From IMG/VR virus record IMGVR_UViG_3300025809_000016: 64,000 nt of DNA; one strand, given 5' to 3'. Below are positions 1-36,634 of the stretch, in pieces. Below the pieces are notes generated by a model that worked only from the letters and a program-made list of their open reading frames with translations, was not told where the DNA came from and searched no databases. Position 1 is the first letter of the stretch, and the number at the start of each line of letters is the position of its first letter. The stretch comes from an uncultured virus (IMG/VR IMGVR_UViG_3300025809_000016). Its lineage: Duplodnaviria > Heunggongvirae > Uroviricota > Caudoviricetes. The translations under genes and the position numbers were made by a program.

Positions 1-1
1 A

Positions 2-3000
2 ACTTATAGCTCTAAAGCAGTTAATAACTTACAAGTAGCTGCCGCAAGACCTTCTACTCTCCTGAGTAATAAAAGTGTTGAAAAAGACCTCCGAAACTTT
101 ATGAGAGCAGAGGCTAACAACACCGGCTCCATCCTGTCCCTTGTGGACTTTCGCGGAACCTCTATTCTAGGTAAGAAAGAAACTCGTAGAAGAGCTAATA
201 ACCAATTTGACGAAAGGAACGTTGGCGTTGACCCCCTAACGGGCGAGACTAAATCTACACTCATATACAACCCTGATTTTAAAGTATATCAGGAACGGCT
301 TGACTTCCTAGAAGGATCCAAGCTGCTTAAACCAGAACAAAAAGCATGGATAAAGAACTTCGCAGACTCCCTTGAAAACGATGGACTATCTGTCAATCAG
401 CAATCAGCAGTCGTAGAGAACCTTCGGGTTACCTTTGAACGCTTTGCTAAAGACAAGAGACCGTGGGAAAACCTTGCTGGAGTACTAAGAGCGGAGATGA
501 AGAACTCTGTTGTAAACACCTCTCGAATACTAGACAGACGATCTAAAAGCAGATCTCAGTTGTTCAGATTCGGAAAATCAGGTGACCAAGCCCAAGTACA
601 GATTCTTGGGGAATGGACAACGTTTGATGACATCACGGCTCGCGCCTTATCCAATCAGCGATTCGTAGACAACTACGCAGCCAATGAAGGCCTCGGATTC
701 GCACGTAAGCTATACTTGTCAGGTCGGTCTCCTTTGAGAACGTACTTCCCTAAACCCCCGGCGACCGCAGGGACTCTAGAGACTGTCAAGAAGAAAATGC
801 TTAAGCAAATAGAATCCTTACCCTTCGGTAAAAAGTTCTTAGACAAATACAACGGTGTCCCTTCGGATTCCGCTTTGACTAAGTTCTTACAAGCAGGTAA
901 CGAGAGAAAGAGAAGGTTCCTAGATTTGGAGTGGATATACGCCAAAAAGAAAGAAGACTTCCTCCAACGTTTCGTTACTCCTGCCTTTGCCAAGAAGCGT
1001 ACAAAGCTACTGTCTGAAATAACTAAAGATATTGCTACCGGGGTCTCAACAGATTACGATGCACTGTCTATACAAATAGGTAAGAAGATCTTTGAAGCTG
1101 AGAAATCTGACTTTGACATCTTCTTCCGTGCTCCTACTATCGCTAACTACCACAAGACAGGCTCAGAGGTGCTACAAGGGTTTAAAGACGCAGGCAAGAT
1201 CAAAGTAGGTCTAAGAGGCGTAACACGGAGAGGCATAAATGACTTAGAGTCAGGTCGCCCTCAAGTAGGCTCCTTTAAGGACACTATTTCCCGTGAGATC
1301 CAAGTTGTAGACCCTAATATGCTTCGTCTTCAGAGAGCTAACAGAGAGCTTAACTACGCTAGAAGAATAGGTATTACTCAGGACAGAGACAGACTTTATG
1401 TTAAAGCAGGCTCTACCAAATACTTTGATTCAAGAGGACGTAAGACCAGTCAAAGTCTTATTACTCGAAAAGCGGGTGGCAACTATGACCAGAACTTAGT
1501 AGACAGAGACTTCGCAGATATGCTCAACCATACTATGGATTTTGAGTGGGAAACAGACGTAGACATAGCATCTTTCTTTGATGATTTAGTCCGCTTCCGT
1601 GACCCCAGAGGGAAGGTCAAGTACTACGATGAACTGAACGGCTTTCGACAGATCATAATGCAGCGGGGTGAACAAGGCTCCGGTATGATGCAAGCGATTA
1701 AATGGCACAATGATAACAGAACTTCGTGGAGGAACTGGACGCAGATAGACGGCAGAGGACGGGTTTATACCCAAGGTTATTTACATCCTGCTGGCGGTGA
1801 GTTTGTTCGTCCGTTCTTAAACACGAAGGTTGCAAAGAACATATCACCAGAAGTAACAGATGAACTACGTATACAGCTAGGTACCCTCGTGGGAGAAGCA
1901 TTTAGCGTGCTTACTAACGAAGGTCGTATGCGGTCATTCAAGGCTAACGAGAAATCGTTCTTAGAGATAGGCAGGTTGCTAACCTCTAAGACTCAGAAAG
2001 ACAGGAACATAAGGGAGTTCTTAGAACATCCTTTAATCCGAGCAACAGAAGCAGAAGAAGTTCCTAAACTCGCTCGATTCGCCTTAGAATACTACCGCAT
2101 ACACAAACACGTAGATGGTGATTTCACTAATGAAAAACTACTAAGAACATACAAGACTCAACTCGGTAACGAGAATGACGCTTCCGCATCTGGAGCACAG
2201 GTGATTGCCTTATCAACGCGAGATAGAGCTTTAGCCAATGCCTCAAATGTATTAGCAACCGATCGAAAGAATCGGCTGTATGACTTAGTTGCAGAAAGAA
2301 CGATGTCTGATCCCGACTTCCAGAAGATCAACCCTCTTGGTAATGACCTCTCCTTTGGAGACATGGCGAAAGCTGCTAAAGGTCAATCAATGGTAGCCTT
2401 TTATGGTGCTGGACAGGCAACTCAAGCTGGTGCTATTGAACTAAAGCTAGCTAAGATTCTTACTCACAAAGATTACCTAGTAGTTACAGCTAAAGACCTT
2501 ACCGGATTTAATAAGTCGTTGGATCGATCTATTACTAACGCTACGGGTGATGATGCGTTGTCTGTGGCAACCGCTCTTAAGCAGCTGAAAACTGAAGTTA
2601 ACTACTCAATAAATAACAACGTTCCTGTCGGGAATCGCTTACTTTCACAGGTGAGAGATATCCATCCTGACTCTGAACTGTTCGTATCTAAGCTGACCAA
2701 TGTGAAAGGTAACATAGTCGGGCCTGCTCAATTTAGAGAGATTGCCCGAATCATGTCGAAACACCTTAAAGACATTGCTCCTGTAACGGAGAACTTCGTT
2801 TCCTTTTGGAAAGAGGTTGCGGAAGTTTACATCACTGAATCCAAGCTAGTAGATATACCTTGGGTTACAATAGATGGAAAAGTCCTTTTTCAGCGCTATC
2901 GTCCAACTGTCGAGGAGAGGATTACTTTTACGGATCCTGTGACAGGGAAGAAGGTAAGCAACATATATGAGGATTCAATAACAGATGACAAGCTAGTAGG

Positions 3001-3388
3001 TCGCTCGTCTATTATTGATGCCCGTAGTGGTTTAGGGGTAAACGGAAACCATATGAATGACGCAACCATTGTACGCTGGTTCCACTTGTGGGGCAAGAAG
3101 AACAATGTGTACACCGCTACAATTCACGATGGATTCTTCACCAACATATCTGATTCTCTTGCTGCAAAATGGCAACTGAGAGAACTCTATGCGAAAGCGG
3201 TAGAAGGTGACACACTGCTAAACACACTCAAAGAAATGAAAGCCCGAGGGCTATCTGAAGAGTCTTATGATCGACTTGTAAAGAAAGCAACTAGCATGGG
3301 ACTCCTCAATCCCGAAAATGGCATAACTGCCGCTGATATCATGGCTGACATCCCTGAAGGCTGGGACTGGTATGGTATTGGCCCGTAA
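2..3388 (+). CDS. Large T7-family single-subunit RNA polymerase, 5'-truncated by the window; candidate virion-packaged RNAP
   Basis: DGRGRVY motif, motif A ENDASASGAQ, motif B KGQSMVAFYG, NGNHMNDA and motif C TIHDGF. No stop codon in frame between 2 and the ATG at 101, so the gene probably starts upstream of the window. Confidence 0.9.
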   Translation, partial: TYSSKAVNNLQVAAARPSTLLSNKSVEKDLRNFMRAEANNTGSILSLVDFRGTSILGKKETRRRANNQFDERNVGVDPLTGETKSTLIYNPDFKVYQERLDFLEGSKLLKPEQKAWIKNFADSLENDGLSVNQQSAVVENLRVTFERFAKDKRPWENLAGVLRAEMKNSVVNTSRILDRRSKSRSQLFRFGKSGDQAQVQILGEWTTFDDITARALSNQRFVDNYAANEGLGFARKLYLSGRSPLRTYFPKPPATAGTLETVKKKMLKQIESLPFGKKFLDKYNGVPSDSALTKFLQAGNERKRRFLDLEWIYAKKKEDFLQRFVTPAFAKKRTKLLSEITKDIATGVSTDYDALSIQIGKKIFEAEKSDFDIFFRAPTIANYHKTGSEVLQGFKDAGKIKVGLRGVTRRGINDLESGRPQVGSFKDTISREIQVVDPNMLRLQRANRELNYARRIGITQDRDRLYVKAGSTKYFDSRGRKTSQSLITRKAGGNYDQNLVDRDFADMLNHTMDFEWETDVDIASFFDDLVRFRDPRGKVKYYDELNGFRQIIMQRGEQGSGMMQAIKWHNDNRTSWRNWTQIDGRGRVYTQGYLHPAGGEFVRPFLNTKVAKNISPEVTDELRIQLGTLVGEAFSVLTNEGRMRSFKANEKSFLEIGRLLTSKTQKDRNIREFLEHPLIRATEAEEVPKLARFALEYYRIHKHVDGDFTNEKLLRTYKTQLGNENDASASGAQVIALSTRDRALANASNVLATDRKNRLYDLVAERTMSDPDFQKINPLGNDLSFGDMAKAAKGQSMVAFYGAGQATQAGAIELKLAKILTHKDYLVVTAKDLTGFNKSLDRSITNATGDDALSVATALKQLKTEVNYSINNNVPVGNRLLSQVRDIHPDSELFVSKLTNVKGNIVGPAQFREIARIMSKHLKDIAPVTENFVSFWKEVAEVYITESKLVDIPWVTIDGKVLFQRYRPTVEERITFTDPVTGKKVSNIYEDSITDDKLVGRSSIIDARSGLGVNGNHMNDATIVRWFHLWGKKNNVYTATIHDGFFTNISDSLAAKWQLRELYAKAVEGDTLLNTLKEMKARGLSEESYDRLVKKATSMGLLNPENGITAADIMADIPEGWDWYGIGP

Positions 3389-3403
3389 CAAATGAACACT
3401 AAT

Positions 3404-3441
3404 GGATCTGTGATCCCTAACTTAATAAACGGCCTGTGGCC
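3404..3441 (+). promoter_or_regulatory. Twin C-UGU-G hairpins in the scaffold leader
   Basis: GGATC-TGT-GATCC (3404-3416) and GGCC-TGT-GGCC (3431-3441) directly before the AGGAA RBS. Confidence 0.45.
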
Positions 3442-3455
3442 TAGGAAATAACAAT

Positions 3456-4103
3456 ATGTCTGATGAATTGAATAACGAAGAAGGAAACGTAGCTCCAGCT
3501 GCAAGTGGAGAAGAGATTGCTGCAATGGTTGCCGCCCAAGTTGAAGAACAACTGGCTGGAATCAAGGGTAAACTTAATGACGCTTACAGTGCTCGTGATG
3601 AGGCTATCAAACGTGCTGTAACTTTCGAAGAAGAAAAGAAAGTAGCACAGATAGCACAACTCGAGGAAGAAGGCAAGCATAAAGAAGCAGGCGATTTACG
3701 CATTGCTGAGATGACTGCCCAACTGGAAATGGCTAGAAAGCAGAACACTGAACTTACCCGAGACAATGTCGTACGCGATGCTCTCAAGGGTATGGACTTC
3801 CGTAACGACACCGCAGCAGGGATGGCCTACAGCACTGTAGTCTCTCAGCTGGTACAGGACGAAAACGGATCTTGGGTTCACAGGACTGGAACTACCATCA
3901 CCGACTTCGCTGCCGCATTTCAGAAAGACGAAGGTAACGAGTTTCTTTTTAAACCAAAACAGTCTTCCGGGACTGGGCAACAAGCACCACAGGCCCCTAC
4001 TGGAGGCTTTGACACTAATAAGTCCATCAGTGAAATGTCTACCGAAGAAATACTTGCCGCATCTGCAGCTGGTCACTTCGATGGCAAGAACAAGTGGCTT
4101 TAA
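3456..4103 (+). CDS. Capsid scaffolding protein
   Basis: Acidic, coiled-coil, 215 aa, FLFK..SSG.G C-terminal motif, immediately upstream of the capsid gene. Confidence 0.75.
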   Translation: MSDELNNEEGNVAPAASGEEIAAMVAAQVEEQLAGIKGKLNDAYSARDEAIKRAVTFEEEKKVAQIAQLEEEGKHKEAGDLRIAEMTAQLEMARKQNTELTRDNVVRDALKGMDFRNDTAAGMAYSTVVSQLVQDENGSWVHRTGTTITDFAAAFQKDEGNEFLFKPKQSSGTGQQAPQAPTGGFDTNKSISEMSTEEILAASAAGHFDGKNKWL

Positions 4104-4150
4104 CTTTACACAACCTAACACTAACTTAATCAATCACGGAGACATTTCTA

Positions 4151-5338
4151 ATGTCAATCTCATCTGCCGCTTTCGGCACTCTGAACAAAGCAATCTCTGC
4201 ATACTCTGACGAACTGTACACACGCGCTAAGAAGCTTGTTGGTACGGAGCTTGTTGGTACTGATGCAAGCATCAATGCAAACGGCGAAGACTTCATCGGT
4301 CAGGTTCGCTTCTACAAGCCACTTGGCAACTACGCTGTCGGCGCAACTGGTGGAACTTCTGAAGACACTACCGGTGCTGCTAACGCTGTTGTTAACGTTG
4401 CTAGCCAAGACGAAGACTACGGAAAGACTTCTAACATCTCTACTGAAGTCCAGACTTACATCAAGACTGTCCGAACTCACGGCGCTAACGAATACATGGT
4501 CAGCTCTTTGATCTCTGGTCAAGAAGGTCTGAACAAGATCGCTCGTGACTTCGCTGAGACTCGTGCTGAAGACGAAGATCAGGCACTGCGAGCTTGTCTT
4601 GCTGGTGTTATGAACACTGAATTGAAAACTGCTAACGACCTAGCTGTCTCTAGCTATGCTGCTGCCTTCGCTGGTAACAGTGTTGATGGCGATCCTAGCA
4701 AAGCTTTTGCTTACGTTGCTGCTTCTTCTGACACTGTTGGCACTGGTTCTTCTATCGAAGCACTGGTTGATAACACTCAAGCTACCCCCGGTAAGCGAGT
4801 AGAACACATCATCCGCGCTATGGGCGCATGGTCTGACTACGCACCTTCTTTCGTCTACATGGTTATTTCTCCTGAAGTATACCTTGACGTTAAAGTTGCT
4901 AACTTGGTTGATGACGAGCGTGTTACCGATGGTAATATCTCTTTCGAAACTATCCTTGGTGGCGTTATCCGTGTTATCGTTTCACGGAACTTCTCTGCTG
5001 CTTTGGCTTCTGCTACTAACGCCGCTCTTTCTGGTGTTACTGCTATGTCTACTGTTAAAGTATCTTACATGATGCTGCCTAGCTCCGTATTCATGGCTGA
5101 CGTTCAGGTTGCTAACCCAGTTGCTGTTGATCGCAATGAAGGTGTTGGCATGGGCGCAGGTCGTACTACTGCTTGGTACCGTTGGGGATACGTAATGCAC
5201 GCACGTGGTTACTCTTTCACTGGTACACAGACTGCATTCGCATCTAACGCTTCCTACACTGGAACCGTTGGAACTCCTACTTGGGCTCGAAAAGCTGACA
5301 TCTTGAACCTCGGCATTCTGCCAATCTTCCACGCATAA
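4151..5338 (+). CDS. Major capsid protein
   Basis: 395 aa, strongly biased codon use, follows the scaffold; C-terminal R..YVMH.RGYSF...W.R resembles phage coat proteins. Confidence 0.85.
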   Translation: MSISSAAFGTLNKAISAYSDELYTRAKKLVGTELVGTDASINANGEDFIGQVRFYKPLGNYAVGATGGTSEDTTGAANAVVNVASQDEDYGKTSNISTEVQTYIKTVRTHGANEYMVSSLISGQEGLNKIARDFAETRAEDEDQALRACLAGVMNTELKTANDLAVSSYAAAFAGNSVDGDPSKAFAYVAASSDTVGTGSSIEALVDNTQATPGKRVEHIIRAMGAWSDYAPSFVYMVISPEVYLDVKVANLVDDERVTDGNISFETILGGVIRVIVSRNFSAALASATNAALSGVTAMSTVKVSYMMLPSSVFMADVQVANPVAVDRNEGVGMGAGRTTAWYRWGYVMHARGYSFTGTQTAFASNASYTGTVGTPTWARKADILNLGILPIFHA

Positions 5339-5358
5339 CTTATCAGGAGTAACTGACT

Positions 5359-5874
5359 ATGGCACTAGTAAAAGGAACCAATTCATACGTGACCTTGAAC
5401 GAAGCTGACAGTTACTTTGATGATCGCATGGATGTCTGTGAATGGACAAGTGCAACTGATGATCTAAAAGAACAAGCCCTTGTGACCGCTACTGCTTATC
5501 TCGATGAGTTAAGCTATGCTGGTCAAGTAGTCTCTTCGGAGCAAATGCTGGCTTTCCCTCGAACTGGGGTCTACACAGACCTTAGTCGGGGCGTTAGAGC
5601 ATACTTAAGTTCTACTTATACGTTTTTAGAGACTGATGAGACCGAAGCAAGTCTGAACAGAGACATACGTCTCCTACGAAAGGCTTGTTTCGAACTCAGT
5701 TTCCATATGGTAAGTAATGAAGGTGTTATGGATAAGTCCAGCACTTTTAAAAGCATCAAAGTTGGATCCATTGAGTTGGTCGGCGAAACTGCTGCTGAAA
5801 CCTTACCTTATAGTATTCTCAAACTCGTAAAACCAATGATGGCAAATAGTACTAGGTCTTGGGAAGGGTGGTAA
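5359..5874 (+). CDS. Head-tail connector (DnaT-like family)
   Basis: NSYVTL.EAD.YF...W......KEQAL..AT.YLD...Q.LAFPR signature. Confidence 0.8.
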   Translation: MALVKGTNSYVTLNEADSYFDDRMDVCEWTSATDDLKEQALVTATAYLDELSYAGQVVSSEQMLAFPRTGVYTDLSRGVRAYLSSTYTFLETDETEASLNRDIRLLRKACFELSFHMVSNEGVMDKSSTFKSIKVGSIELVGETAAETLPYSILKLVKPMMANSTRSWEGW

Positions 5875-5877
5875 GCT

Positions 5878-6228
5878 ATGTCAATACGAGCAAAAATCAC
5901 CCAAGCTGTCAACGCTGCTTTTAGTGCCGTTGGCGATCTAGCGCAAGATGTTATTCTTAAAGAAAGTTCTGAGGGAGTCTATGACTTCACTACTGGAGCT
6001 ACTGCTTCAACTGTTACAGAATCTACTGTTGTAGGTATTGTGATGGCTATGAAGGAGAAGCCTACAATAGAGAACATAGCTACCCCTATGTCAGAGGTTT
6101 ACATTAAGGAAGCAGACTTGCCTAACCCAAAGCTATACAGTGTAGTAAGCATTGCAAGCGTAGATCATAGCATTATTTCCTACATAGTAGAACCGGGACT
6201 TGTCACACTCAGGGTAACGGAGGGCTAA
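5878..6228 (+). CDS. Head closure/head-tail joining protein (putative)
   Basis: Position and size; G.YD..TG motif. Confidence 0.55.
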   Translation: MSIRAKITQAVNAAFSAVGDLAQDVILKESSEGVYDFTTGATASTVTESTVVGIVMAMKEKPTIENIATPMSEVYIKEADLPNPKLYSVVSIASVDHSIISYIVEPGLVTLRVTEG

Positions 6229-6229
6229 T

Positions 6230-6625
6230 ATGTCTAAATATGTAAATGTACAGCGGGACATAGAAGGCGTTTTCGCCACTTCCGCTTGGACAACTAATAG
6301 CATATCTGCATATCCTGTCAACTTTGCCATCCCTGCTAACATTGCTGAATTCGTCAAGATAGAAGTTCTTCCTTTGAAGAGTAATATCGATTACGGACGG
6401 TTTGGCATTTCGGGATTAGCGATTATCCAAGTTTACGTTCCTACCAATAAAGGTACGACACGTATACTTCAGATATCAGATTTACTAGATACCGTACTAC
6501 AAAACAAAACACTAGGGAATGGAACCCAGACTCAAGAGAGTCTCGTACAGATCCTAGGTCAAGATCCTGAAACTCCTAACCTCTTCAGAGGCGACTATCA
6601 GGTTCACTTCAACTTATACAACTAA
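6230..6625 (+). CDS. Tail terminator/completion protein (putative)
   Basis: Position before the tail tube; G..IIQVYVP...G pattern. Confidence 0.6.
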   Translation: MSKYVNVQRDIEGVFATSAWTTNSISAYPVNFAIPANIAEFVKIEVLPLKSNIDYGRFGISGLAIIQVYVPTNKGTTRILQISDLLDTVLQNKTLGNGTQTQESLVQILGQDPETPNLFRGDYQVHFNLYN

Positions 6626-6639
6626 GAGGTTTTTCTCTA

Positions 6640-7251
6640 ATGGCTCATATATCTTCTATCGGTGCGTCCAAGTTCACTACTCTGGACTACGTACTAAACA
6701 CTGCGAACAGCGACATCAGCACAGCTGCTGATCTGAACGACCTGTTCATCTCTAACCAAACTGCTATCCTTGCAGCTGACTCTCAGATCGACGAAGTTCC
6801 AGAATCTGCTGTAGTTCACGTTGGCAACATCCGTGAATTCCCTAGCTTGGGTTCTCCTGCAAACATCGTAAACGTTCCTGTTTACGGCGCTGCTGTTTCT
6901 TCACAGGTAGCTGGTCAGTCTGACAACGCTTCTTTGGAATTCTCTTTGAACTACGTTCCTAGCGATCACCACGCACTTGAAACTATCCGTAAGGCTGGTT
7001 CACGTTTGTGTTTCAGAGTTCGTTTAGCTGATGCTGACATCACTGTTGATGGTAACCGAGTTATCACTGCTGACAATCTTGACACTTTTGCTGACTTCTT
7101 CTTCTTCGGTAAGATCGCATCTTTTGAGATCCAGCCCGGACTGACTGACGCTCTGCAAGCTACAATGTCAATCGCTATCGACGGCGACTTCAATGGCCCG
7201 TTCAGCTTAGTTGCTGGTAGCGGCACAAGCACTTACGCACTTCCTGCTTAA
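6640..7251 (+). CDS. Major tail tube protein
   Basis: IREFPSLG.PANIVNVPVYG..SQV.GQSD pattern; biased codons; followed by a terminator. Confidence 0.8.
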   Translation: MAHISSIGASKFTTLDYVLNTANSDISTAADLNDLFISNQTAILAADSQIDEVPESAVVHVGNIREFPSLGSPANIVNVPVYGAAVSSQVAGQSDNASLEFSLNYVPSDHHALETIRKAGSRLCFRVRLADADITVDGNRVITADNLDTFADFFFFGKIASFEIQPGLTDALQATMSIAIDGDFNGPFSLVAGSGTSTYALPA

Positions 7252-7272
7252 GTACTGACTGTATTGAGTACA

Positions 7273-7300
7273 AGGGGATCCTTCGGGGTCTCCTTCTCTC
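7273..7300 (+). terminator. Intrinsic terminator after tail tube gene
   Basis: AGGGGATCC-TTCG-GGGTCTCCT hairpin then a pyrimidine run. Confidence 0.6.
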
Positions 7301-7333
7301 TACTATTCTTATAAACTAATGGATTAAATAATA

Positions 7334-7582
7334 ATGGATACCGAACGAACTACTCCATTTGATAAAGGTTTTGTAATCCAGACCACACTTCGGAACATGA
7401 AGAAAGATATAGACTTCAGTTCACGTAAGACGTTTGACAGATACAAAGACTTTCCAAATGAGCTCGACACTGCTCATAAAGAGAAGCGCACTGAGATCTT
7501 CGAGACTCTCGATGTACTAAACAAAATGCATAAACTGATTGACGAGTTCCAAGCGAACAACAGTCATCTGTTTGGCAAGTAA
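7334..7582 (+). CDS. Hypothetical protein in tail module
   Basis: 82-aa ORF in operon context. Confidence 0.6.
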   Translation: MDTERTTPFDKGFVIQTTLRNMKKDIDFSSRKTFDRYKDFPNELDTAHKEKRTEIFETLDVLNKMHKLIDEFQANNSHLFGK

Positions 7583-7628
7583 CATAACCTAAACTTAAAT
7601 ACAAACTAACACATACAGGATTATTAAA

Positions 7629-7931
7629 ATGAAGCAATTTATCGGACAAGTACAAACACGAACAGTTTCTTTCATGGACGGAGAAGTTGAAGTTAGAACT
7701 CTCACAGTTGGTGGTGCTAAAGCTATCGACCTGAAGACCAAAGAACTGGCTAAGAAGAAAGGCGCATCCGATATGGATCAGCTCGAGCTTCTGCGATTCA
7801 TCATTCGCACCTCAGTAGTAGGCGCAGAAGAGATGACTGACGAAGAGATTGACGGTTTCCCTATGACTGAACTAACCAAACTTGCTGAAGGCGTCATGGG
7901 CGTCACTGGTGCTCCAGAGGGAAAAGGCTAG
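7629..7931 (+). CDS. Tail assembly chaperone (gpG-like)
   Basis: Position; ends in slippery G-GGA-AAA at 7919-7925. Confidence 0.75.
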   Translation: MKQFIGQVQTRTVSFMDGEVEVRTLTVGGAKAIDLKTKELAKKKGASDMDQLELLRFIIRTSVVGAEEMTDEEIDGFPMTELTKLAEGVMGVTGAPEGKG

Positions 7932-8257
7932 AACCGGCTGATCTATGGCTGTATGATCTCGCTTTTCATTTAGGCATCCCTGTCTACTTGATTGAGCGGG
8001 ATATGCCAGCAGCAGAACTGCGTAACTGGGCTAAGTACCTTGATGCAAGACCTATAGGATGGAGGGCAGACAACGCTGCCGCTATGCAACTCTCCGCAGC
8101 TGGAGTGAAAGCAAGTGGCCACGAGTTGTTCAGTTCTCTCGCACAAATGAAAGTGTGGGAAGATGGAAGAGATGAGGAAGAGAAAGAGCGTATAGCGATG
8201 CAAAGCTCCTTATCCAAGTCTGTCTTCGGCGCACTCCTACAACAAGCTCACAAGTAA
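7919..8257 (+). CDS. Tail assembly chaperone -1 frameshift extension (gpGT-like)
   Basis: The -1 frame after GGGAAAA reads RLEPADLWLYDLAFHLGIPVYLIERDM... with no stop until 8257. Confidence 0.75.
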   Translation, partial: GKRLEPADLWLYDLAFHLGIPVYLIERDMPAAELRNWAKYLDARPIGWRADNAAAMQLSAAGVKASGHELFSSLAQMKVWEDGRDEEEKERIAMQSSLSKSVFGALLQQAHK

Positions 8258-8271
8258 TCAAGGAGGTCACA

Positions 8272-8673
8272 ATGGCAGTAGGTATAAAACTGTCGCTCAG
8301 AGGGGTTGATAAGACGTTTGCTAACCTCAACGAAGAACTTACCATGTTAGTAAACAACGCTCAAAGATCCTCCGCTATCGCTGCCACTGGTGCCTTGCAA
8401 ATTAAGACCCCCGTGGATACAGGTCGGGCCAGAAGTTCTTGGTCGGTAGGAAAAACAAACACTGCTAAAGACGCTGCTTTCACAGCACTCAGGTCAACAG
8501 CGGTGCTAGGGCCAGTCCCTAGTCGCACCATTGAAACTTTATACATAACTAACGGGACACCTTACATTCAGGAATTGAACCAAGGTAGTTCTGTCCAAGC
8601 ACCACCCCGGTTTATTGAGAAAACCCTCAATAAGTACTTCACGTTTACAGCTGGTTCTGTAAAATACACATGA
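8272..8673 (+). CDS. HK97 gp10-like neck/tail component
   Basis: TPVDTGRARSSW and N.TPYI..LN.GSS.QAP motifs. Confidence 0.8.
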   Translation: MAVGIKLSLRGVDKTFANLNEELTMLVNNAQRSSAIAATGALQIKTPVDTGRARSSWSVGKTNTAKDAAFTALRSTAVLGPVPSRTIETLYITNGTPYIQELNQGSSVQAPPRFIEKTLNKYFTFTAGSVKYT

Positions 8674-8679
8674 ATTAAG

Positions 8680-8733
8680 ATGCCCCTGATGGTTGACCTA
8701 ACAACATTAGGTTTAACTGACAGGGGCATTTTT
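8680..8733 (+). promoter_or_regulatory. Long hairpin before tape measure gene (terminator or RNase III-type site)
   Basis: ATGCCCCTG/CAGGGGCAT outer stem, GTTGACCTA/TAGGTTTAAC inner stem, T-run after. Confidence 0.55.
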
Positions 8734-8753
8734 ATGCTAAAGGAAACTTTATA

Positions 8754-11700
8754 ATGGCTATCGAAATTGAGGTAAAATCGAATTCGAGACAGGCAAGAGC
8801 AGACTTAGACCGGCTAAATAGTTCAGTTGATAAAATAAATACTTCCACCGAAAATGCAGGGAAGATGTTGAAGCGACTTGCCATCCAAGCAGGTGCTGCT
8901 TTCGCAGTCATCGGGTCTACACGAGCCGTAACTAATATCACAGACTCCTACCGTAGACTAGAGGCACGTATTGCTCTGACTACTAAGAGTACTGAAGAAC
9001 AAGTAAGGGCATTCAAGCAACTTAACGCTGTCGCCTTAGAAACACGCTCCAATCAAGAATCACTCGCAGACCTCTACTCTCGGATATCGAGAGCTACAGC
9101 TTCTCTTGGTGTAGAGCAAAAAGAAGTATTAAAGATCACCCGATCTATTTCACAAGCTATAACCATCTCTGGTTCATCTGCTGAATCCGCTAACTCTGCT
9201 ATTGTGCAGTTAGGGCAGGGACTAGCAGCTGGTGCTTTGAGAGGTCAGGAATTAAACTCTGTAATGGAACAAACACCTGCTGTAGCGCAAGCTATTGCTC
9301 GTGGGATGGGCATTACGATCGGTCAGCTAAGAGCCTTCGCCAACGAAGGAAAGCTCTCGGCACTAGCTGTTGTTGAAGCGTTATCTAGCCAGACAGCCTC
9401 TATTGATGAAGAGTTTAGCAGAATACCCATAACCTTCGCCCAAGCGTCACTTGTGATGAGCACAGGTATTGGTCGGATTGTGAACGAAGTAGATAAAGGT
9501 TTAGGAGTAACTACTAAGATCACGGATAGCCTTATGGCAGCAGGTCACTCGCTGAATGCTGCTGCTGAAGGTATCGGCCTTAATGCTATCGCCTTTAAAG
9601 AGTCGTTCGAGTCGATGACAAAAGGTGGTGCCGTACTAGTAGATTCTCTTAAACACCTCGGACGCGCTTTCCAAAGCTTAGCGGCTATGGCTATCGATCG
9701 GATATTCTCAACAAAGATGTTGCTTATGTTTCAATCTATAGGGTTTGCTGTAAGAGGGTTTGGCATTGCGCTACTCTACTTACTCGCGCCTCTGACTCGG
9801 ATAGCTAGTATAATAGACAGACTAGCATTCAAGATGGAAACCTTTGTTTCCCGCTTCGAACTTGGGCCAATTGAAAAAAGCATGCGTAGCCTCTCCCTTG
9901 GTTTCGGTAGTGCAATAGGCGAGATGGGTTTGGCAATCAACTTATTCATGGCTAAGAGTGGACAAATACTGTTCCTGTTCAGTCGGAAGATAGCATTTGC
10001 ATTCTTTAGTTTAGAAGCAAGCATCACTCAAACAGGTATCGCTTTCGGATTACTCGGCAAAGAATTAGGTCTTTCTTTTGGGCTTATGGGCCCAGCCCTC
10101 CAAGCTGTTGGTTCCCTACTAGAAAGCACCCTTGGTAAAATGGTAGGTAACATCGGCAAGTTCTTCTCTAAGGGTCTTATTGAAGAAATAGTAGCCGCCT
10201 TTTCTTTCTTGCAAGCGTATCTATCTAACATGGGCGGTAACGCTGCTGACGCTTTCTTAACTGGTATCTCAAAAAAGATGGGAATAGGTAAAGCGCAATC
10301 TTCTGTAACAGAAGCTCTCTCTGGACTATTCGGAAATTTCAAAGACGTATTTACAATGATGAATAAGGCACCTCTGTCGGGTCTTAAAAGTACTCTTAAC
10401 AATATTATGTCTGTGTTTGAGAATTTCACTGACAAAGTTGCTAAGTACTTCTTTGTAGTATACGATAAGGTAGTTGGTAACAGCTACTGGCCAGATCTGA
10501 TCGACGAAGTTGTAGCATACACTTCTAAGATAGCCCCTGCGCAAGAAGGTATCCGTAGCTTTACTGATAAAGTAAGTGGATTCTTCAAAAAGGGATTTGG
10601 GGACGTCAAAGGACTCTTAAGCTCTGCTGGTGCGGAAATCAAAATCTTCATTAAGTCATTCGTAGAGTCCCTTAAAACTGTAGAAGGCATCGCCCTCGCT
10701 ATTGCAGGCGTATTCTTATCGCTAGCAGCGGGAGTTGTCGGGCCAGTCTTTGCTGCGGTATTCGGAGCAGTGTCCTTACTGAGCAGCCTCCTTAGACACA
10801 GCTCACTTTCTATGGAACATCTTATAGAGTTCTCTGAATCATTAACTGATAAGATAAGAGACTTAGTAAACAACTTTGACTTGTTGAATGATGGACTGAG
10901 TTCCTTTGCTAGTGCAGCAAGCTCAATAGCTTCTAGCTCCCTATTCGCAGGGTTAGCGGAAGGGTTAAAGGGTATTCTTGTGCTGTTAAAGCCCCTTACC
11001 ATGCTGATATCTGACACGTTTGGTAGTGCCTTAGTAGGCGCTATTACAATAGGTCTCGCTTACTTAATAGCACCTATTGGTGTATTCGCTGCTATAATGG
11101 CGGGTCTTTTTGCTTCTGAGCTAACTACTGCTTTTGATTCAGTCTTAGGAATGTTCGGATCCAGCATGAGTTCTTTGCTAGGTAGTATTTCTGAAAACGT
11201 AGGTACTATCGTAGAGAAGTTGACAGAGGCTTTCGTCAGGCACATACCTTACATGGTTGGTCTTGTGTACGAAATTGGCTCAGGTCTCGTCCGTGGATTT
11301 CTTGACGGGGTACCCCTAATAGGTGGTGCGCTATCTAGCTTGTTTGACCTCATTAATGGGCTCACTCTTGGACTATTAGGTACTGCTGTAGGTGGTGGTA
11401 TTCTCTACATGCTATTTGCTCCTAAAGGTCTTAAAACAGCATTAGGCGCTTTGTTCACTTGGATCAGAACTGAAACAGCTGTGCTTTCTGGGCTACAATG
11501 GATAGGCACAAGTTTGATAGCGGAAGGAGTAGGCTTCGCTAAAATGCAATTCGCAGGATTATATGCATGGACTACGGGATTGTTTTCTAGAGCAAGAAGC
11601 TACTTCTCTGACATCCTTTTTGGAGCAGCAGGAAGAGCAGGAGCTGCAGCTGATGCTGCTTTCGCAACTGGTCTATTTAGCAACATATCTAACGCTGCTA

Positions 11701-19516: not shown

Positions 19517-19531
19517 TCAATCACTCTATAG
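19517..19531 (+). promoter_or_regulatory. Phage RNAP promoter, class B (consensus YTGATCACWCTAWAG)
   Basis: TCAATCACTCTATAG, intergenic; variant of a six-copy motif. Confidence 0.55.
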
Positions 19532-19599
19532 CAGCAAAACAGAGGGGCCTTCGGGCCTCTTACCTCTTAAACTAACATACATTTAATAAGGAGACACTT

Positions 19600-22846: not shown

Positions 22847-23326
22847 ATGGCACGCTCAACAAGCACCAGTTCAGGAAGATCACGAATAACAGCGCCTACC
22901 AGAGATGTCCTAACGGATGATGGTACCGCTTTAATCTCGCTAGTAAAAGGCGAACAAATACAAATAGAGTTCACAGCAGCTTGGATGACCAGCCTGTTAG
23001 GAGCTACGATTACTGCTAAGGTAGTGGAAGGAGACAACGATGTGTTAGGTACTAAACCTACACACGAAGCTCACCACGGTAGTCAACAATCAGCTATCAT
23101 AACCACATTGGAAGTGATCGATGAAATACCTACAGACAACGTTTTTAAAATAGTCTTTCCCGAAACACTAATAGCAACTTGGTCTACTGCCCCTCTTCCT
23201 AATCTCCCTGTATATGGCTTCTTTGGCATAGAGATAGCAGATGTGGGTGTTGGATCTGCTCAACAAATATGGAAGCCCGTTCGTGGCTTAGTAGAAGTTC
23301 TATACAGCCCCACGGAGGCAACCTAA
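22847..23326 (+). CDS. Virion structural protein (BppU-like, putative)
   Basis: Beta-rich 159 aa preceding a large fibre gene. Confidence 0.45.
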   Translation: MARSTSTSSGRSRITAPTRDVLTDDGTALISLVKGEQIQIEFTAAWMTSLLGATITAKVVEGDNDVLGTKPTHEAHHGSQQSAIITTLEVIDEIPTDNVFKIVFPETLIATWSTAPLPNLPVYGFFGIEIADVGVGSAQQIWKPVRGLVEVLYSPTEAT

Positions 23327-28140: not shown

Positions 28141-28159
28141 TACTTTTAGATGTAAATAT

Positions 28160-28194
28160 ACCCCCTTAAGGATCACTCCTTTTGGGGGTTTTTT
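28160..28194 (+). terminator. Intrinsic terminator ending the structural region
   Basis: ACCCCC..AAGGA-TCAC-TCCTT..GGGGGT followed by a T run. Confidence 0.8.
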
Positions 28195-28198
28195 ACGC

Positions 28199-28269
28199 TA
28201 AAAAGGGCCAAAAAAGTGAGAAAAAGGACGTATCTATAACGGAAGAATAAAAAGTAAAGCTAATCAAAA
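28199..28269 (+). promoter_or_regulatory. Class A promoter-like repeat, copy 1
   Basis: About 70 nt nearly identical to 28650-28721; core AAAAAGTGAG-N9-GTATCTATAACGGAAGAAT. Confidence 0.65.
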
Positions 28270-28283
28270 GGAACCAAGAAGAT

Positions 28284-28652
28284 ATGATTCACCAAGAAGT
28301 AGCAGCAATGTTGTTAAGCCTGTGTATGCAGTTAACCCTTGCGGGTTGCCCTGCACTCGTTGACTCACCGAAAGTACTTAAGCACCACTCACCCTCCGCA
28401 ACAATGATGTTCGCGGTTTCACAAACCCGGATAACAAAGGAAAAGAGGTACTACGTTTACTACTCACAAGCTTCTATAAAGGGCTTGAACCGAATGGAAA
28501 TACGTGGTGTCTTGGTACACGAACTGGCCCACTACATTTTGTATGTGGAGAAAGGATTGGACACCTCAAAGCATCAACGTCCGTTCCGAACTGAATGTCG
28601 CATACTCGCTAAATCGGCAGGAGAGGTAAGAACTTCTGTTTGTAGGCCTTAA
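28284..28652 (+). CDS. SprT-like zinc metalloprotease domain protein
   Basis: VLVHELAH...H..PF...C. Confidence 0.7.
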   Translation: MIHQEVAAMLLSLCMQLTLAGCPALVDSPKVLKHHSPSATMMFAVSQTRITKEKRYYVYYSQASIKGLNRMEIRGVLVHELAHYILYVEKGLDTSKHQRPFRTECRILAKSAGEVRTSVCRP

Positions 28653-28721
28653 AAAGGGCCTAAAAAAGTGAGAAAAAGGACGTATCTATAACGGAAGAAT
28701 AAAAAGTAAAGCTAATCAAAA
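28650..28721 (+). promoter_or_regulatory. Class A promoter-like repeat, copy 2
   Basis: Direct repeat of 28199-28269. Confidence 0.65.
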
Positions 28722-28762
28722 CCTTGTACTATCTATTAAAACTAAACCTAAAGGAATAAATC

Positions 28763-28870
28763 ATGAGCACTATCATCGCAGTAGTTGGAACATTCGTAGT
28801 AGTAAAGTTCGTATTAACAGTAATCATTAACGTTGCGCTTCTTGCAATAGTTAAGTTCTCTAAATTTTAA
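28763..28870 (+). CDS. 35-aa hydrophobic peptide
   Basis: MSTIIAVVGTFVVVKFVLTVIINVALLAIVKFSKF, preceded by the repeated leader and AAGGAA RBS. Confidence 0.55.
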   Translation: MSTIIAVVGTFVVVKFVLTVIINVALLAIVKFSKF

Positions 28871-28921
28871 TCTTAGCCCTTAAACTAAATCTATTAAAAC
28901 TAAACCTAAAGGAAGTATATT

Positions 28922-29326: not shown

Positions 29327-29380
29327 TAAGAGCCTAATATTAACCTTTAACAGTTTTGGGGAAGTCAAATAATCCCTAGC

Positions 29381-29484: not shown

Positions 29485-29493
29485 AAGAAGACA

Positions 29494-29550: not shown

Positions 29551-29592
29551 CTTAACTAAATCTATTAAACTAAATCTATTAAGGAATTAAAT

Positions 29593-31350: not shown

Positions 31351-31641
31351 ATGAAATTTAGCGAGTATCAGGACAACGCAGTTAGATTTAAGAAGTTCCA
31401 AAAGAGTTCAGATGATTTCTTTATTGGATTGTCAGCAGAGGTAGGTGAGTTAATGTCAGAGCGTATGCGTGAGAATCGGATTGACCGAACACCACGAGGA
31501 CGCAAAGAGATCAAAGCTGAACTCGGGGACATCTTGTGGTACGTCACTGCTATTGCAGATGAGTACAATCTGGATCTTGAGGACATAGCTAACTATAACA
31601 TCTTTAAACTGGAGCAAAGAAAGGCAGGAAAAAGTGAGTAG
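31351..31641 (+). CDS. MazG-like nucleotide pyrophosphohydrolase
   Basis: EYQ..A, GL..EVGE, ELGDILWY....A......LEDIA..N..KL..R. Confidence 0.88.
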   Translation: MKFSEYQDNAVRFKKFQKSSDDFFIGLSAEVGELMSERMRENRIDRTPRGRKEIKAELGDILWYVTAIADEYNLDLEDIANYNIFKLEQRKAGKSE

Positions 31642-31666
31642 AAGTCTGTATCTATAACGGAAGAAT
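31629..31666 (+). promoter_or_regulatory. Class A promoter-like repeat, copy 3
   Basis: AAAAAGTGAG-tagaagtct-GTATCTATAACGGAAGAAT; same boxes, different 9-nt spacer. Confidence 0.65.
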
Positions 31667-31721
31667 TAAAAGAAGTAACCTTAAACTAAATCTATTAAAA
31701 CTAAACCTAAAGGAATATATT

Positions 31722-34232: not shown

Positions 34233-34339
34233 TCCCCTGCGCTACGCAGAATTTAAAAGGCACTATGGATGATCTTGATTGATCACTCTATAGCACCTTT
34301 TAAATTCGCGTAGCGCAGGGGAACCCACTCTTTTTTTTT
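34233..34339 (+). promoter_or_regulatory. 90-nt inverted repeat containing a class B promoter (34279-34293), followed by T9
   Basis: TCCCCTGCGCTACGC/GCGTAGCGCAGGGGA, GAATTTAAAAGG/CCTTTTAAATTC; TTGATCACTCTATAG in the loop and 3' arm. Confidence 0.75.
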
Positions 34340-34363
34340 GTTATACTAAGGAAGTAAACTTTA

Positions 34364-36634
34364 ATGCGAGAAGAAATAATTGCGAGCCTGTCAGAAAGAC
34401 TACTCACAGCTAAAGACGGTCGTAGCCATGTACATTGGTTGTGGGCGCACCTTACTAAAGACGGAGCAGATCCTGCTATTCTTATCGAGCAAATCTACAA
34501 GCTGGTTGTAAGTAAGGTTGTAATAGGTGTGATCCAAGGAGCATCGATGACATCGGTAGCAGTATCTATCGGTTCATCAATACGCCTTATGGTCAAAGAG
34601 GAACCTCTAAAGGAAGAGACCAAAGCCGCTGTACACTTAGGTGTCAAAGTATTGGAAGCCTTCTGTGTACAAGGAAACCCCAAGGGCATAGATCTCTTGG
34701 ATATTAAACTAATGAACAGAGGTAGGAACTCTGGATCAAAAGATAACGCAGTATACGCGCTCACCTGTACCAACGAAGAGAACCTAGAGACTATCATCCT
34801 CGGTGAGGACATAGAGCAATCTCCTGAGTTCCCTCTGCTGGAACCCGCAATGGACTGGGTAACATCATTCCATCCTGACCTTCGGGTCTCTATGATACGA
34901 GGTGCTTCATCACGTACACTTAAGAGGATGACACCACTGTCTGCCCCTCGAGTATACGCCGCATTGAACAAGATGCAGAAGACACCTTACCTTATTAACC
35001 AGAAAGTATTTAAAGTATATGAGAAACTTCTATCGACACAATCGAAAGAAGAAATGCTCAAGCGAGACTATAAGCTCTCTCCTGACTCCCCGTTTAAACA
35101 CGAGAAGGAAGAGATGGTTTCAAGTCGAGCGGGTATGTATCTTGAAGCTGAGTTCATTAAGACAATGGCTAACAAGATTGGCACTAGAGACTTCTATCAG
35201 GCTTACAACTGTGACTTTCGTGGTCGCATATATCCGATGACACCTTACTTGAACGAGCAAAGCTCTGACAACGCTAAGGGTTTAATTAGGTATCGTGAAG
35301 CGGTTCCACTGGGAGAAGACGGCGCTTACTGGATGGCTGTGCACACTGCTAACTGTATCGGAGAGGACAAACTTGAACTCGATGACAGAGCGCAGTATGT
35401 AGTAGACCGTCTAGACGAGATTTACAGCTGGGCAAAAGACCCACTTGTGAACATAGGTTGGATGAAGACAGACAAACCGTGGTCAGTGTTAGCTATGGCA
35501 TTCGAGTGGCATCAGTTGCACTATTGGGAACATCTTGGTGGTAACGACCCCGAAGATTACCTTTGTCCTGTACCAATCTTTATCGATGGCTCCAACAACG
35601 GTGTTCAACATTTGACCGCTTTGTCACTTGATCACTCTATAGCACCCCTCGTTAATCTTGTACCAACAAAGATGCCCGGAGACGTATATATGTATGTCGC
35701 CGATAAGACTTGGGAGGCACTAGATGTCCTGATGGAAGCTCTGGATCACCCTGTGAAAACAGAGATGCCACGCTTGCTTGAGGAGATCAAGAACATCAAG
35801 CTCAAAAGAGAACGTGCTGAAACAAAGGAAGATAAGAATGCTGCTTACGAAGAACTTGACGAATGGCGAAAAACCAACCGCGAGTACGAGAAGCAGATAT
35901 TTATACCCTTCTGGAGTATGTACAAAGATGACCGTAAGCTACAACGAAAGAGTGTTAAGCGACCCGTAATGACTTTAGGCTACGGAGTTACAAGACAAGG
36001 CGTAAGGGATCAGATATTTGATGATACCAAAGGCCTGTCTGAAGAACTCAAGTTTAAGGATAAGTCGTGGTCTAACCCTTTTGCTGACTTACTTAGAGAT
36101 ACTATGCTTGCCAAGCTCAAAGGCCCTGCGGATATGCTCAAGCTCTTTCAAGACTTAGCAAACCGAGCCAATGACAAAGGTGAGTTCTTGTCGTGGAATG
36201 TTCCTATAACGAACTTCCCCGCTGTGCAAGAGTACCTCAAGACCAAGGAAGATCGTATACGAGTACGCTTCTGCGGTGCTAACAAAGGTAAGGGTATTCA
36301 ACTTACTATACAACCCAAAGAAACTGGGAAGCTAGACAAAAGAAAGCAGGCAACAGGTGCTGCTCCTAATATCGTTCATTCGTTTGATGCCGCGCATCTT
36401 ACAATGATCGTCAACGCACCAGACTTCATTGTTACCACGATACACGACAGCTTCGGTTGTCATCCGGGTAACATGGGAGATCTGTTCAGGATCACGAGGG
36501 AAACCTTTGTTGAGTTCTATACGTCCGATCCGCTAGCTCAACTGCTGGCACAGACAGATAGCCTTGACATATTTCCAGAACGTGGCAACCTCGACTTAAC
36601 AGCTGTGCTTGATTCCGATTTCGCATTCTGCTAA
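34364..36634 (+). CDS. T7-like DNA-directed RNA polymerase (second RNAP)
   Basis: DFRGRIYP, DGSNNGVQH (motif A), RKSVKRPVMTLGYG (motif B), PNIVHSFDAAH, IHDSFG (motif C), C-terminal FAFC. Confidence 0.97.
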   Translation: MREEIIASLSERLLTAKDGRSHVHWLWAHLTKDGADPAILIEQIYKLVVSKVVIGVIQGASMTSVAVSIGSSIRLMVKEEPLKEETKAAVHLGVKVLEAFCVQGNPKGIDLLDIKLMNRGRNSGSKDNAVYALTCTNEENLETIILGEDIEQSPEFPLLEPAMDWVTSFHPDLRVSMIRGASSRTLKRMTPLSAPRVYAALNKMQKTPYLINQKVFKVYEKLLSTQSKEEMLKRDYKLSPDSPFKHEKEEMVSSRAGMYLEAEFIKTMANKIGTRDFYQAYNCDFRGRIYPMTPYLNEQSSDNAKGLIRYREAVPLGEDGAYWMAVHTANCIGEDKLELDDRAQYVVDRLDEIYSWAKDPLVNIGWMKTDKPWSVLAMAFEWHQLHYWEHLGGNDPEDYLCPVPIFIDGSNNGVQHLTALSLDHSIAPLVNLVPTKMPGDVYMYVADKTWEALDVLMEALDHPVKTEMPRLLEEIKNIKLKRERAETKEDKNAAYEELDEWRKTNREYEKQIFIPFWSMYKDDRKLQRKSVKRPVMTLGYGVTRQGVRDQIFDDTKGLSEELKFKDKSWSNPFADLLRDTMLAKLKGPADMLKLFQDLANRANDKGEFLSWNVPITNFPAVQEYLKTKEDRIRVRFCGANKGKGIQLTIQPKETGKLDKRKQATGAAPNIVHSFDAAHLTMIVNAPDFIVTTIHDSFGCHPGNMGDLFRITRETFVEFYTSDPLAQLLAQTDSLDIFPERGNLDLTAVLDSDFAFC
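35628..35642 (+). promoter_or_regulatory. Class B promoter motif inside the RNAP gene
   Basis: TTGATCACTCTATAG(CACC), 19 nt identical to the copy at 34279. Confidence 0.55.

Follow-up and report, generated by a model that had tools for sequence, protein, structure and literature searches.

We analysed a stretch of DNA of 64,000 nucleotides (nt), hereafter the window, from an uncultured virus (IMG/VR record IMGVR_UViG_3300025809_000016), with a focus on the gene that is cut by its left edge. All genes of the window lie on one strand, and the window coordinates given below refer to this plus strand. The open reading frame (ORF) at 2..3388 is open at the 5' edge, stops at 3388 and encodes 1128 amino acids (aa). 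A protein search with the polymerase part as query retrieved a 1484-aa protein of the window's own genome (P0005), whose aa 357-1484 match the window ORF residue for residue (1128 of 1128). The window ORF is therefore the C-terminal 1128 aa of a fusion between a MuF-type head protein and an RNA polymerase (RNAP), named here MuF-RNAP, and the first 1068 nt of the gene, including the MuF core, lie upstream of the window.

Only two Pfam domains were detected in P0005, namely Phage_Mu_F (PF04233) at aa 143-248 (56.4 bits against a cut-off of 29.6, E 5.9e-15) and RNA_pol (PF00940, 28.3 bits). For the window ORF, PF00940 scores 29.2 bits against a gathering cut-off of 22 (E 5.6e-7), and the ORF matches PHROG 414 'RNA polymerase' with E 8.8e-25 and phrog_2166 with only E 8.8e-4. 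The match to phrog_241 'head morphogenesis' covers aa 1-466 of a full-length relative (P0002), so that the head module still extends over the first ~110 aa of the window ORF. This end of the gp7/MuF-like module (2..331) carries a basic motif, RRRANNQFDERN (nt 185-220), which is invariant in the alignment of relatives. A predicted helical linker (332..616) connects the head module to the polymerase fold, for which structural matches begin at about residue 206 of the model. The remaining part (617..3385; model aa 206-1127, compared to T7 aa ~30-883) is predicted to form a complete T7-like single-subunit RNAP fold with N-terminal domain, palm, fingers, thumb and specificity-loop hairpin. Judged from sequence and model, the encoded 1484-aa protein is thus composed of three parts, a MuF/SPP1-gp7-type module of ~466 aa, a short helical linker and a T7-type RNAP of ~920 aa. 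The first-pass annotation of this DNA, which had reported an RNAP ORF of more than 1120 aa open from the window edge and had guessed at a fusion to a MuF part outside the window, is borne out on these points by the Pfam check of the upstream N-terminus.

The four catalytic motifs listed in that annotation (DGRGR, DASASGAQ, K-x7-YG and IHD) are all present. The DxRGRxY motif (1748..1768), with DGRGR at aa 583-587 (nt 1748-1762) and D583, R585, G586, R587 and Y589 as its key residues, aligns to D421-Y427 of T7 RNAP. Motif A, DASASGAQ, occupies aa 726-733 (2177..2200), where D726 is aligned to the catalytic Asp of T7 in DGSCSGIQ. Motif B, K793-x7-Y801-G802 (aa 793-802, 2378..2407), was placed by pattern, and its tyrosine falls at the ribonucleotide-selecting position of T7 RNAP. 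Motif C, IHD (aa 1041-1043, 3122..3130), contributes H1042 and D1043 and aligns to IHDSF of T7. In the HMMER alignment three motifs fall onto DWRGRVY, DGSCSG and IHDSF, and a specificity-loop-like segment precedes NGNHMND. We aligned 32 relatives, picked from the 120 listed matches so as to span 46-76% identity; D583, R585, G586, R587, Y589, D726, K793, Y801, G802, H1042 and D1043 are invariant in 32/32 sequences, down to an identity of 46%. The specificity loop of the fusion polymerase seems to be more conserved than that of the second polymerase of this phage (see below), but the difference looks modest beside the overall identities and was not used as evidence.

An AlphaFold2 model of the 1128 aa, generated from the 32-relative alignment, has a mean predicted local distance difference test (pLDDT) value of 85 and a predicted template modelling (pTM) score of 0.76. 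Comparison of the model to the PDB with VIA-align gave T7 RNAP (8dh5_M) at Z 28.4, with a root-mean-square deviation of 3.9 over 516 aligned residues (model 213-1126, T7 35-882), mitochondrial RNAPs at Z ~25 and the N4 mini-vRNAP (2po4) at Z 16.0. Foldseek against the PDB likewise returned T7 and mitochondrial RNAPs, over ~1000-1030 columns with E ~1e-18 (2e-18), and a fold search of BFVD placed a DSS3-type homologue at the top, canonical T7-like phage RNAPs at E ~1e-19 and N4-like virion RNAPs at E ~1e-10. Since the deep nodes of a tree were judged to be unreliable at 10-16% identity, fold scores were used for the deep kinship. Membership of the N4 gp50 family was ruled out by the Z of 16.0 against 28.4 for T7, by the BFVD ranks, by the weak match to phrog_2166 and by the two-domain architecture of the 1484-aa protein; because the enzyme is closer to T7 and mitochondrial RNAPs, it would be an analogue of the N4 strategy without being related to gp50. 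Nor did it arise as a recent copy of the second polymerase of this phage, to which it hardly aligns (BLASTP E 0.15, 18% identity over 204 aa).

As far as sequence and model can tell, the polymerase part looks like an active enzyme, a divergent but whole T7-type RNAP, and the earlier description of it as a divergent member of the T7 family is upheld by the motifs, PF00940 and the complete T7-like fold (Z 28.4). One may argue from the low Pfam score of 29.2 bits and the 13-16% sequence identity to T7 that the polymerase domain is an inactive relic, present as bulky head cargo or as a DNA-binding plug. However, such a relic would not be expected to keep its catalytic residues invariant in 32/32 relatives and a predicted fold that is complete from the N-terminal domain to the C-terminus, and the polymerase-coding part is interrupted in two relatives, which also speaks against a relic. 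We regard this explanation as extremely improbable.

Both PF04233 and PF00940 are also present in the proteins of two related loci, L001 (96% identical) and L002 (74%), and in gp108 of the cultured phage DSS3_VP1 (47%), which is annotated as 'head morphogenesis' or 'minor head protein-like'. The window phage is Naomviridae-like, and its cultured relatives are DSS3_VP1 and DSS3_PM1, roseophages with deoxyuridine (dU) DNA. In the window, the fusion gene is directly followed by genes for a head scaffolding protein (3456..4103, phrog_206) and the major head protein (4151..5338, phrog_247), and then by those for the Ad1 adaptor, the tail terminator, the major tail protein, a tape measure of 2127 aa, the distal tail protein and, as far as 28140, large tail proteins. 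On the upstream side, L001 has a portal ORF at 387-2024 followed by the fusion ORF at 2501-6955, and the order in DSS3_VP1 is portal, tRNA and gp108, with the major head protein two genes downstream of gp108. The gene order in these sequences indicates that the fusion gene sits between portal and scaffold. The structural module is of the siphovirus type, without a sheath gene, and DSS3_VP1 and DSS3_PM1 are described as having siphovirus morphotype, with a capsid of 47-55 nm and a tail of 230-240 nm (PMC8323127, available sections). The placement of the gene directly upstream of scaffold and capsid, in the slot behind the portal of a siphophage, which had been proposed from the window alone, thus agrees with the neighbouring genes and with the two relatives. 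A complex prediction of portal (alignment of 4) with MuF aa 1-360 (alignment of 32) scored 0.00, a value that counts neither way on binding.

The same annotation had pointed out a separate, canonical RNAP of 756 aa at 34364, and this gene is indeed present. It encodes a second, free T7-like RNAP (RNAP2; 34364..36634, PF00940 E 1e-75), which is presumed to be the middle/late polymerase. The two enzymes differ in their cysteine (Cys) content. The polymerase part of the fusion contains no Cys in its 1128 aa, and the same holds for the polymerase part of 32/32 aligned relatives; the MuF part has 2 Cys in each of the 31 full-length aligned rows (the window row lacks the MuF part), corresponding to C220 and C243 of P0005. 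Among the 113 full-length relatives (those of at least 1400 aa among P0005-P0123), the last 1120 aa are without Cys in 112 and contain a single Cys in one. RNAP2, in comparison, has 8 Cys in 756 aa, and the RNAP2 counts over six genomes are 7-10. Cys makes up ~1.3% of the residues of replication enzymes in the window and ~0.2% of those of structural proteins, and the tape measure (8754-15137) has none in 2127 aa. The injected proteins of N4 (NC_008720) are also free of Cys (gp50 0/3500, gp51 0/644, gp52 0/150), while the subunits of its non-virion RNAPII have 4 and 9. The fusion polymerase therefore has the composition of a virion protein, as does N4 gp50, and free RNAP2 that of a cytoplasmic enzyme, although the signature is to be read as 'virion-like' and not specifically as 'ejected' because the structural proteins of this phage are generally poor in Cys.

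This composition bears on the possibility that the polymerase is not delivered at all, but is a late cytoplasmic RNAP that boosts late transcription, possibly freed from MuF by the head protease, so that only MuF would be found in the capsid. The gene does belong to the late head cluster, the window has a gene for a ClpP-type prohead protease (58848-59408), and the polymerase part is only a putative component of virions. But the loss of Cys, kept in 112/113 relatives against 7-10 Cys in the free RNAP, would be hard to explain for an enzyme of the cytoplasm, the MuF fusion is kept in 27/27 sampled representatives, and a third promoter class that could serve such an enzyme was not found beside the two classes described below. 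A late cytoplasmic role of the polymerase thus appears very unlikely.

The late operon ends at 28140 and is closed by an intrinsic-terminator-like hairpin with a T run (28163..28197). Behind it lies the early region, a low-GC block (0.39-0.40) of small genes from 28284 to 34226, which is followed by the RNAP2 gene, genes for replication and nucleotide metabolism, lysis genes and the ClpP-type protease. The head of the early region carries a conserved motif of ~35 nt, AAAAAGTGAGAAAA-N7-ATCTATAA, which we call class E. Copy 1 (AAAAAAGTGAGAAAAAGGACGTATCTATAACGGAAGAA, 28207..28251) is a candidate promoter of MuF-RNAP; copy 2 is located at 28658..28702, and copy 3, at 31629..31673, is more diverged (nhmmer E 0.0072). 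The copies are part of a 70-nt repeat that occurs three times (28200, 28652, 31618), and the 18-nt core GTATCTATAACGGAAGAA has 3 exact occurrences in the window as compared to 0.07 expected by chance. Directly behind copy 1 the first early gene (28284-28652) encodes a protein of the SprT-like metalloprotease family (PF10263 E 8.3e-7).

DSS3_VP1 has the same signal twice (AAAAAAGTGAGAAAACTAAGGCATCTATAATGA), where its early region begins and immediately after a terminator, even though its proteins are only 37-47% identical to those of the window. A degenerate class E pattern was found in at least 134 IMG/VR stretches, of which 80 loci (L013-L092) were parsed with spans of 26-30 nt allowed. They contain 97 instances, 95 of them with a span of 28 nt. 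Positions left free by the pattern are conserved at 84-100% (A -1, A 9, A 11, A 16, G 18, TGA 28-30 and AA 34-35), whereas those specified by it are invariant by construction and carry no weight. We saw no conserved inverted repeat in the core. As a separate feature, many of the parsed loci have a dyad (for example GATAC-N-GTATC) just downstream, right after the ATCTATAAT core, and the window copies are without it.

A profile built from 79 unique instances finds 1-3 class E copies per genome, with 3 in the window, 2 and a partial one in DSS3_VP1, 2 each in G009 and G016, 3 in G018 and 1 each in G002 and G015. In 7/7 genomes class E lies upstream of the RNAP2 gene and in the same orientation, at a distance of 0.9-6.7 kb in six and 16 kb in G015; for the five G genomes it is the position of the motif and not its presence that is evidence, because these genomes were chosen for carrying it. 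Searches of 18 motif-bearing contigs longer than 42 kb showed that the fusion is encoded in 13/18, and in 6/7 of those that are at least 90% complete.

The second motif class, M/L, is of the TGATCAC[T/A]CTA[T/A]AG type (as in 19517..19535) and looks like a promoter of the T7/T3/SP6 type. Its copies in the window are at 19520, 22758, 34282, 35631, 47995 and 56571, all on the plus strand and none on the minus strand. The motif reads TGATCACTCTATAG in the window, CCAGGGGACGCTAAAGAGAGA (GGGGACGCTAAAG) in G009 and G002, AATACCTGACCTTTAAGA (ACCTGACCTTTAAG) in G016 and ATAGGGTGCGTTAAAGA (GGGTGCGTTAAAG) in DSS3_VP1. Class M/L thus varies by genome and is scattered over the middle and late genes, whereas class E is near-constant and limited to the front of the early region. 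Most simply, the variable class M/L would be assigned to free RNAP2, the more variable of the two enzymes, and class E, being constant, to the fusion polymerase.

Immediately before the RNAP2 gene (34233..34340), 90 nt can fold into a near-perfect hairpin (-62.8 kcal/mol, z -12.2) with T9 behind it, and the apical part of this hairpin holds a class M/L motif. Hairpin and motif may together act as an attenuator combined with an autoregulatory promoter, and the expression of RNAP2 may depend on partial read-through followed by self-amplification.

We consider it likely that a packaged and ejected MuF-RNAP starts early transcription at class E and that free RNAP2 takes over on the middle and late genes; packaging, ejection and promoter assignment are what we infer from the observations above. 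The fusion gene would be expressed late together with the head genes, as its position between portal and scaffold suggests, and a few copies would enter the procapsid at the portal by means of the MuF module, by analogy to SPP1 gp7 and to MuF-cargo fusions. At infection, the Cys-free polymerase would leave the capsid with the DNA, in the manner of N4 gp50, and would initiate at the one to three double-stranded class E promoters which head the low-GC early region behind the late terminator. The gene of the free 756-aa RNAP2 would be among those transcribed early or would be switched on as a result, and this enzyme would in turn serve middle and late genes, including that of the fusion, from T3/SP6-like promoters that are specific to each genome (here TGATCACTCTATAG). 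The whole cycle would need no host RNA polymerase, which fits the dU-substituted DNA of the cultured relatives. A polymerase that is loaded into the capsid and injected for early transcription, as suggested in the first-pass annotation, is backed by the Cys-free signature and by a conserved early motif that is distinct from the middle/late class.

Several observations weigh against this sequence of events, in addition to the limits already given for the Cys signature, for the pattern-specified positions and for the five selected genomes. Five of the 18 motif-bearing contigs are without the fusion; four of these are 63-85% complete, and G008 is 95% complete. No class E at up to 3 mismatches was found in the partial record of EBPR siphovirus 1, whose fusion protein is 32% identical, and none in the incomplete 26.6-kb record of L002 at the same threshold. 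The relay to RNAP2 cannot be simple read-through, because a very stable terminator-like hairpin separates its gene from the early genes. The paper on DSS3_VP1 contains neither virion proteomics nor transcription data, and RNA polymerase is mentioned 0 times in the main text; in its supplement, DSS3_VP1_056 is entered as 'RNA polymerase' but DSS3_VP1_028 as no more than 'minor head protein-like'. Lastly, 99% of the parsed class E instances contain a perfect TATAAT, and conserved A's lie 6-7 nt beyond it; a -10 element and start site of host sigma-70 would look the same.

The TATAAT with its downstream A's leads to an explanation in which the fusion is packaged, but host RNAP reads the early region from class E, the conserved upstream GTGAGAAAA box would serve another factor, and the carried polymerase would have some other task, for instance pulling the genome in by transcribing it, priming, or making a short pre-early RNA. 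The terminator-like hairpin before the RNAP2 gene would also be in line with it. However, class E has no -35-like hexamer at a spacing of 16-18 nt and no TG extension, and the conservation of ~35 nt at fixed spacing across phages with 37-50% identical proteins is beyond the need of sigma-70. Furthermore, the ATCTATA-purine core of class E resembles T7-family promoters and the phage's own second promoter class. In the early region as a whole we found no good sigma-70 promoter, only 14 weak matches as compared to 20 +/- 4.5 in shuffled sequence. The nature of the DNA argues in the same direction: the cultured relatives carry dU in place of deoxythymidine (PMC8323127, available sections), and the other known dU phages are, according to the accessible part of a review, jumbo phages with virion and non-virion multisubunit RNAPs and an infection that is independent of host RNAP (PMC7598289). 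Early transcription by host RNAP is therefore unlikely in our view, and a MuF-RNAP that itself reads class E remains the preferred explanation.

If Naomviridae carry a T7-type polymerase, they would have solved the problem that these jumbo phages face convergently. The window encodes a protein of the dCMP-deaminase family (50122-50541) that is 38% identical to an enzyme of DSS3_VP1 characterised as a dCTP deaminase (PMC12697855, accessible part), and no HD-type dTMP phosphatase was found in the window.

RNAPs borne by the virion have so far been described for podophages of the N4 type, for crAss-like and jumbo phages and for one siphophage of Thermus. The fusion resembles N4 gp50 in that it is a single-subunit RNAP of the T7 superfamily, encoded among late virion genes and presumably carried in the capsid, with zero Cys in both (gp50 0/3500, here 0/1128). 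N4 has three early promoters, and as in the window, its few early promoters lie upstream of the genes for a second phage RNAP (RNAPII genes gp15/gp16, at 4.6-6.7 kb of the record). These N4 promoters are DNA hairpins, in contrast to the class E core, in which we saw no conserved hairpin. The fold of the fusion polymerase is nearer to T7 RNAP (Z 28.4) than to the N4 mini-vRNAP (Z 16.0), and the 1484-aa protein has a MuF head module and would leave through a long tail. N4 gp50 differs as a protein of 3500 aa from a short-tailed phage, with a central polymerase, its own N- and C-terminal regions for injection and encapsidation and a fused zincin peptidase (PMC5512222, available text).

With T7 and mitochondrial RNAPs (PF00940) the polymerase part shares the fold over nearly the whole T7 chain, the catalytic motifs, the specificity-loop hairpin and a promoter style of ATCTATA followed by purine. 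T7 RNAP is made after infection and is not packaged. Unlike it, the fusion is encoded among head and not early genes, has ~560 extra N-terminal residues including MuF, is only 13-16% identical and has no Cys. Proteins of the MuF/SPP1 gp7 type and their fusions to cargoes such as toxins, RNases, RelA/SpoT and PRTase have in common with it the N-terminal PF04233, the position adjoining the portal gene and a C-terminal enzymatic cargo that is thought to be delivered with the DNA (PMC5512222, available text), whereas the cargo here is a whole transcription enzyme of 920 aa. In Thermus phage P23-45, also a siphophage, an RNAP fused to a virion protein is delivered and serves to transcribe the pre-early genes, one of which encodes a second RNAP that is not in the virion (PMC10770324, accessible part); that enzyme is a two-barrel RNAP of the cellular type on the tape measure, while here a T7-type enzyme is joined to a head protein. 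The dU jumbo phages PBS2/AR9 and phiR1-37 are similar in having two phage polymerases, host-RNAP independence and a dU genome (PMC7598289; in the present group dU is known for the cultured relatives, PMC8323127; both as far as the available sections go), but their polymerases are multisubunit and of the cellular type, and their genomes exceed 200 kb.

In the available text of a survey of polyvalent proteins and MuF fusions, the cargoes are PBECR, 2H, RelA/SpoT, PRTase and zeta-kinase domains, with no RNAP among the MuF fusions, and virion RNAP modules of the N4 type are stated to occur only in N4-like phages (PMC5512222). Our full-text literature searches, the scope of which did not extend to subscription journals and preprint supplements, found no published description of a MuF-RNAP fusion.

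Among isolated phages, the fusion protein is found only in DSS3_VP1, DSS3_PM1 and EBPR siphovirus 1. In a protein collection clustered at 90% identity, at least 229 clusters match the polymerase part at E <= 0.001; nearly all of the 120 matches listed are 1450-1600 aa long with both Pfam domains precomputed, and where source names are given they read 'SPP1 gp7 family head morphogenesis protein' or 'minor capsid protein'. A phmmer search of 1.84 billion representatives gave 127 matches at E <= 0.001, none above 2073 aa. From these we took 27 for scanning, with preference for greater length and distance, and detected MuF in 27/27 and also PF00940 (E <= 0.001) in 18/27. In P0236 and P0249, MuF is joined to a far more canonical T7-like RNAP (PF00940 E 1e-25), a sequence-based observation that points to a second lineage of the MuF-RNAP design; neither a genome locus in viral contigs nor a full-length match among isolated phages was found for this type. 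P0160 retains MuF and a region matching aa 351-707 of the window protein, and ends in NTP_transf_2 and GNAT in place of the polymerase core. Given P0160, P0236 and P0249, the MuF-polymerase fusions do not form a single lineage.

The polymerase genes are interrupted in some relatives. In G018, the MuF-RNAP gene and the free RNAP gene (C1:50225-54394 and 6467-9409) are each interrupted by ~0.8 kb, and in EBPR siphovirus 1 (L166, JF412302, 2999-8372) the annotation divides the fusion into gp47 and gp49, between which lies gp48, an HNH endonuclease. The interruptions in the polymerase-coding part of these two phages are likely to be homing elements or introns.

The window stretch was found in marine and seawater metagenomes, and three metatranscriptome runs contain parts of relatives. 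The metatranscriptome contigs over 27800-36700 are 90-99% alike and come without starts, ends or strand, and hence give no evidence on transcription. Megablast of window positions 1-8000 against phages gave no match, and the nearest record (G001) is a 23-kb fragment without the fusion gene. Direct terminal repeats are recorded by IMG/VR for G009, G018 and G019; the ends coincide with the late/early junction only in G018, where class E is 804 nt from the left end, and no conclusion on genome ends was drawn because these repeats may be assembly artefacts.

Other features of the window concern its early, middle and late genes. Among the early genes, 29736-30383 encodes a fragment of an Eco57I-type methylase and 31351-31641 a MazG-like pyrophosphatase. 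The early region also contains a hammerhead ribozyme of type II at 33641-33704 (Rfam RF02276, 42.4 bits against 37), and a second hammerhead-like copy at 29493-29553 has the CGAAAC and CUGAUGAG cores in common with it and a 45-nt stretch of 98% identity (D15), with no cmscan report at E <= 0.1. These ribozymes may cut early polycistronic transcripts. A leader of ~50 nt (CCTTAAACTAAATCTATTAAAACTAAACCTAAAGGAA..ATG) occurs in seven copies (28731-32585; repeat families D3/D5/D8) before small early genes, and shorter CTAAACTAA-like elements are located before middle and late genes too; the repeated leader may have a role in translation or in processing. An endonuclease VII/HNH-like gene (41916-42395) divides the family A DNA polymerase into two ORFs, at 40431-41879 and 42449-43003. 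The last late gene (23269-28140) encodes a protein of 1623 aa without family match and has internal repeats of ~105, 216 and 432 nt (D1, D2, D7, D11); the protein is probably a fibre or decoration protein of tandem domains.

The design of MuF-RNAP combines known kinds, virion RNAPs and MuF cargo fusions, and is widespread in marine metagenomes. Whether an entire, globally abundant marine lineage of long-tailed phages (Naomviridae and kin, some with dU-DNA) is fully independent of host RNAP is in our estimate an evenly balanced question; its MuF tag would then deliver a 165-kDa, Cys-free T7-type polymerase through a siphophage tail, and this enzyme would read one nearly universal, double-stranded promoter of ~35 nt, common to the lineage and distinct from the promoters of the second polymerase. 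DSS3_VP1, DSS3_PM1 and their host Ruegeria pomeroyi DSS-3 are in culture, which makes the proposal directly testable. If true, hundreds of metagenomic 'minor head proteins' would have to be re-annotated, and biochemistry would gain a compact and well-defined polymerase-promoter pair, within a naturally orthogonal pair of T7-type polymerase/promoter systems in one small genome. The cargo of MuF proteins would extend from small toxins to a complete transcription machine, and a MuF head module that delivers a T7-type enzyme would open a new way to the virion-RNAP end, a third and independent invention of this strategy. It would also explain how transcription starts in the dU-DNA roseophages.

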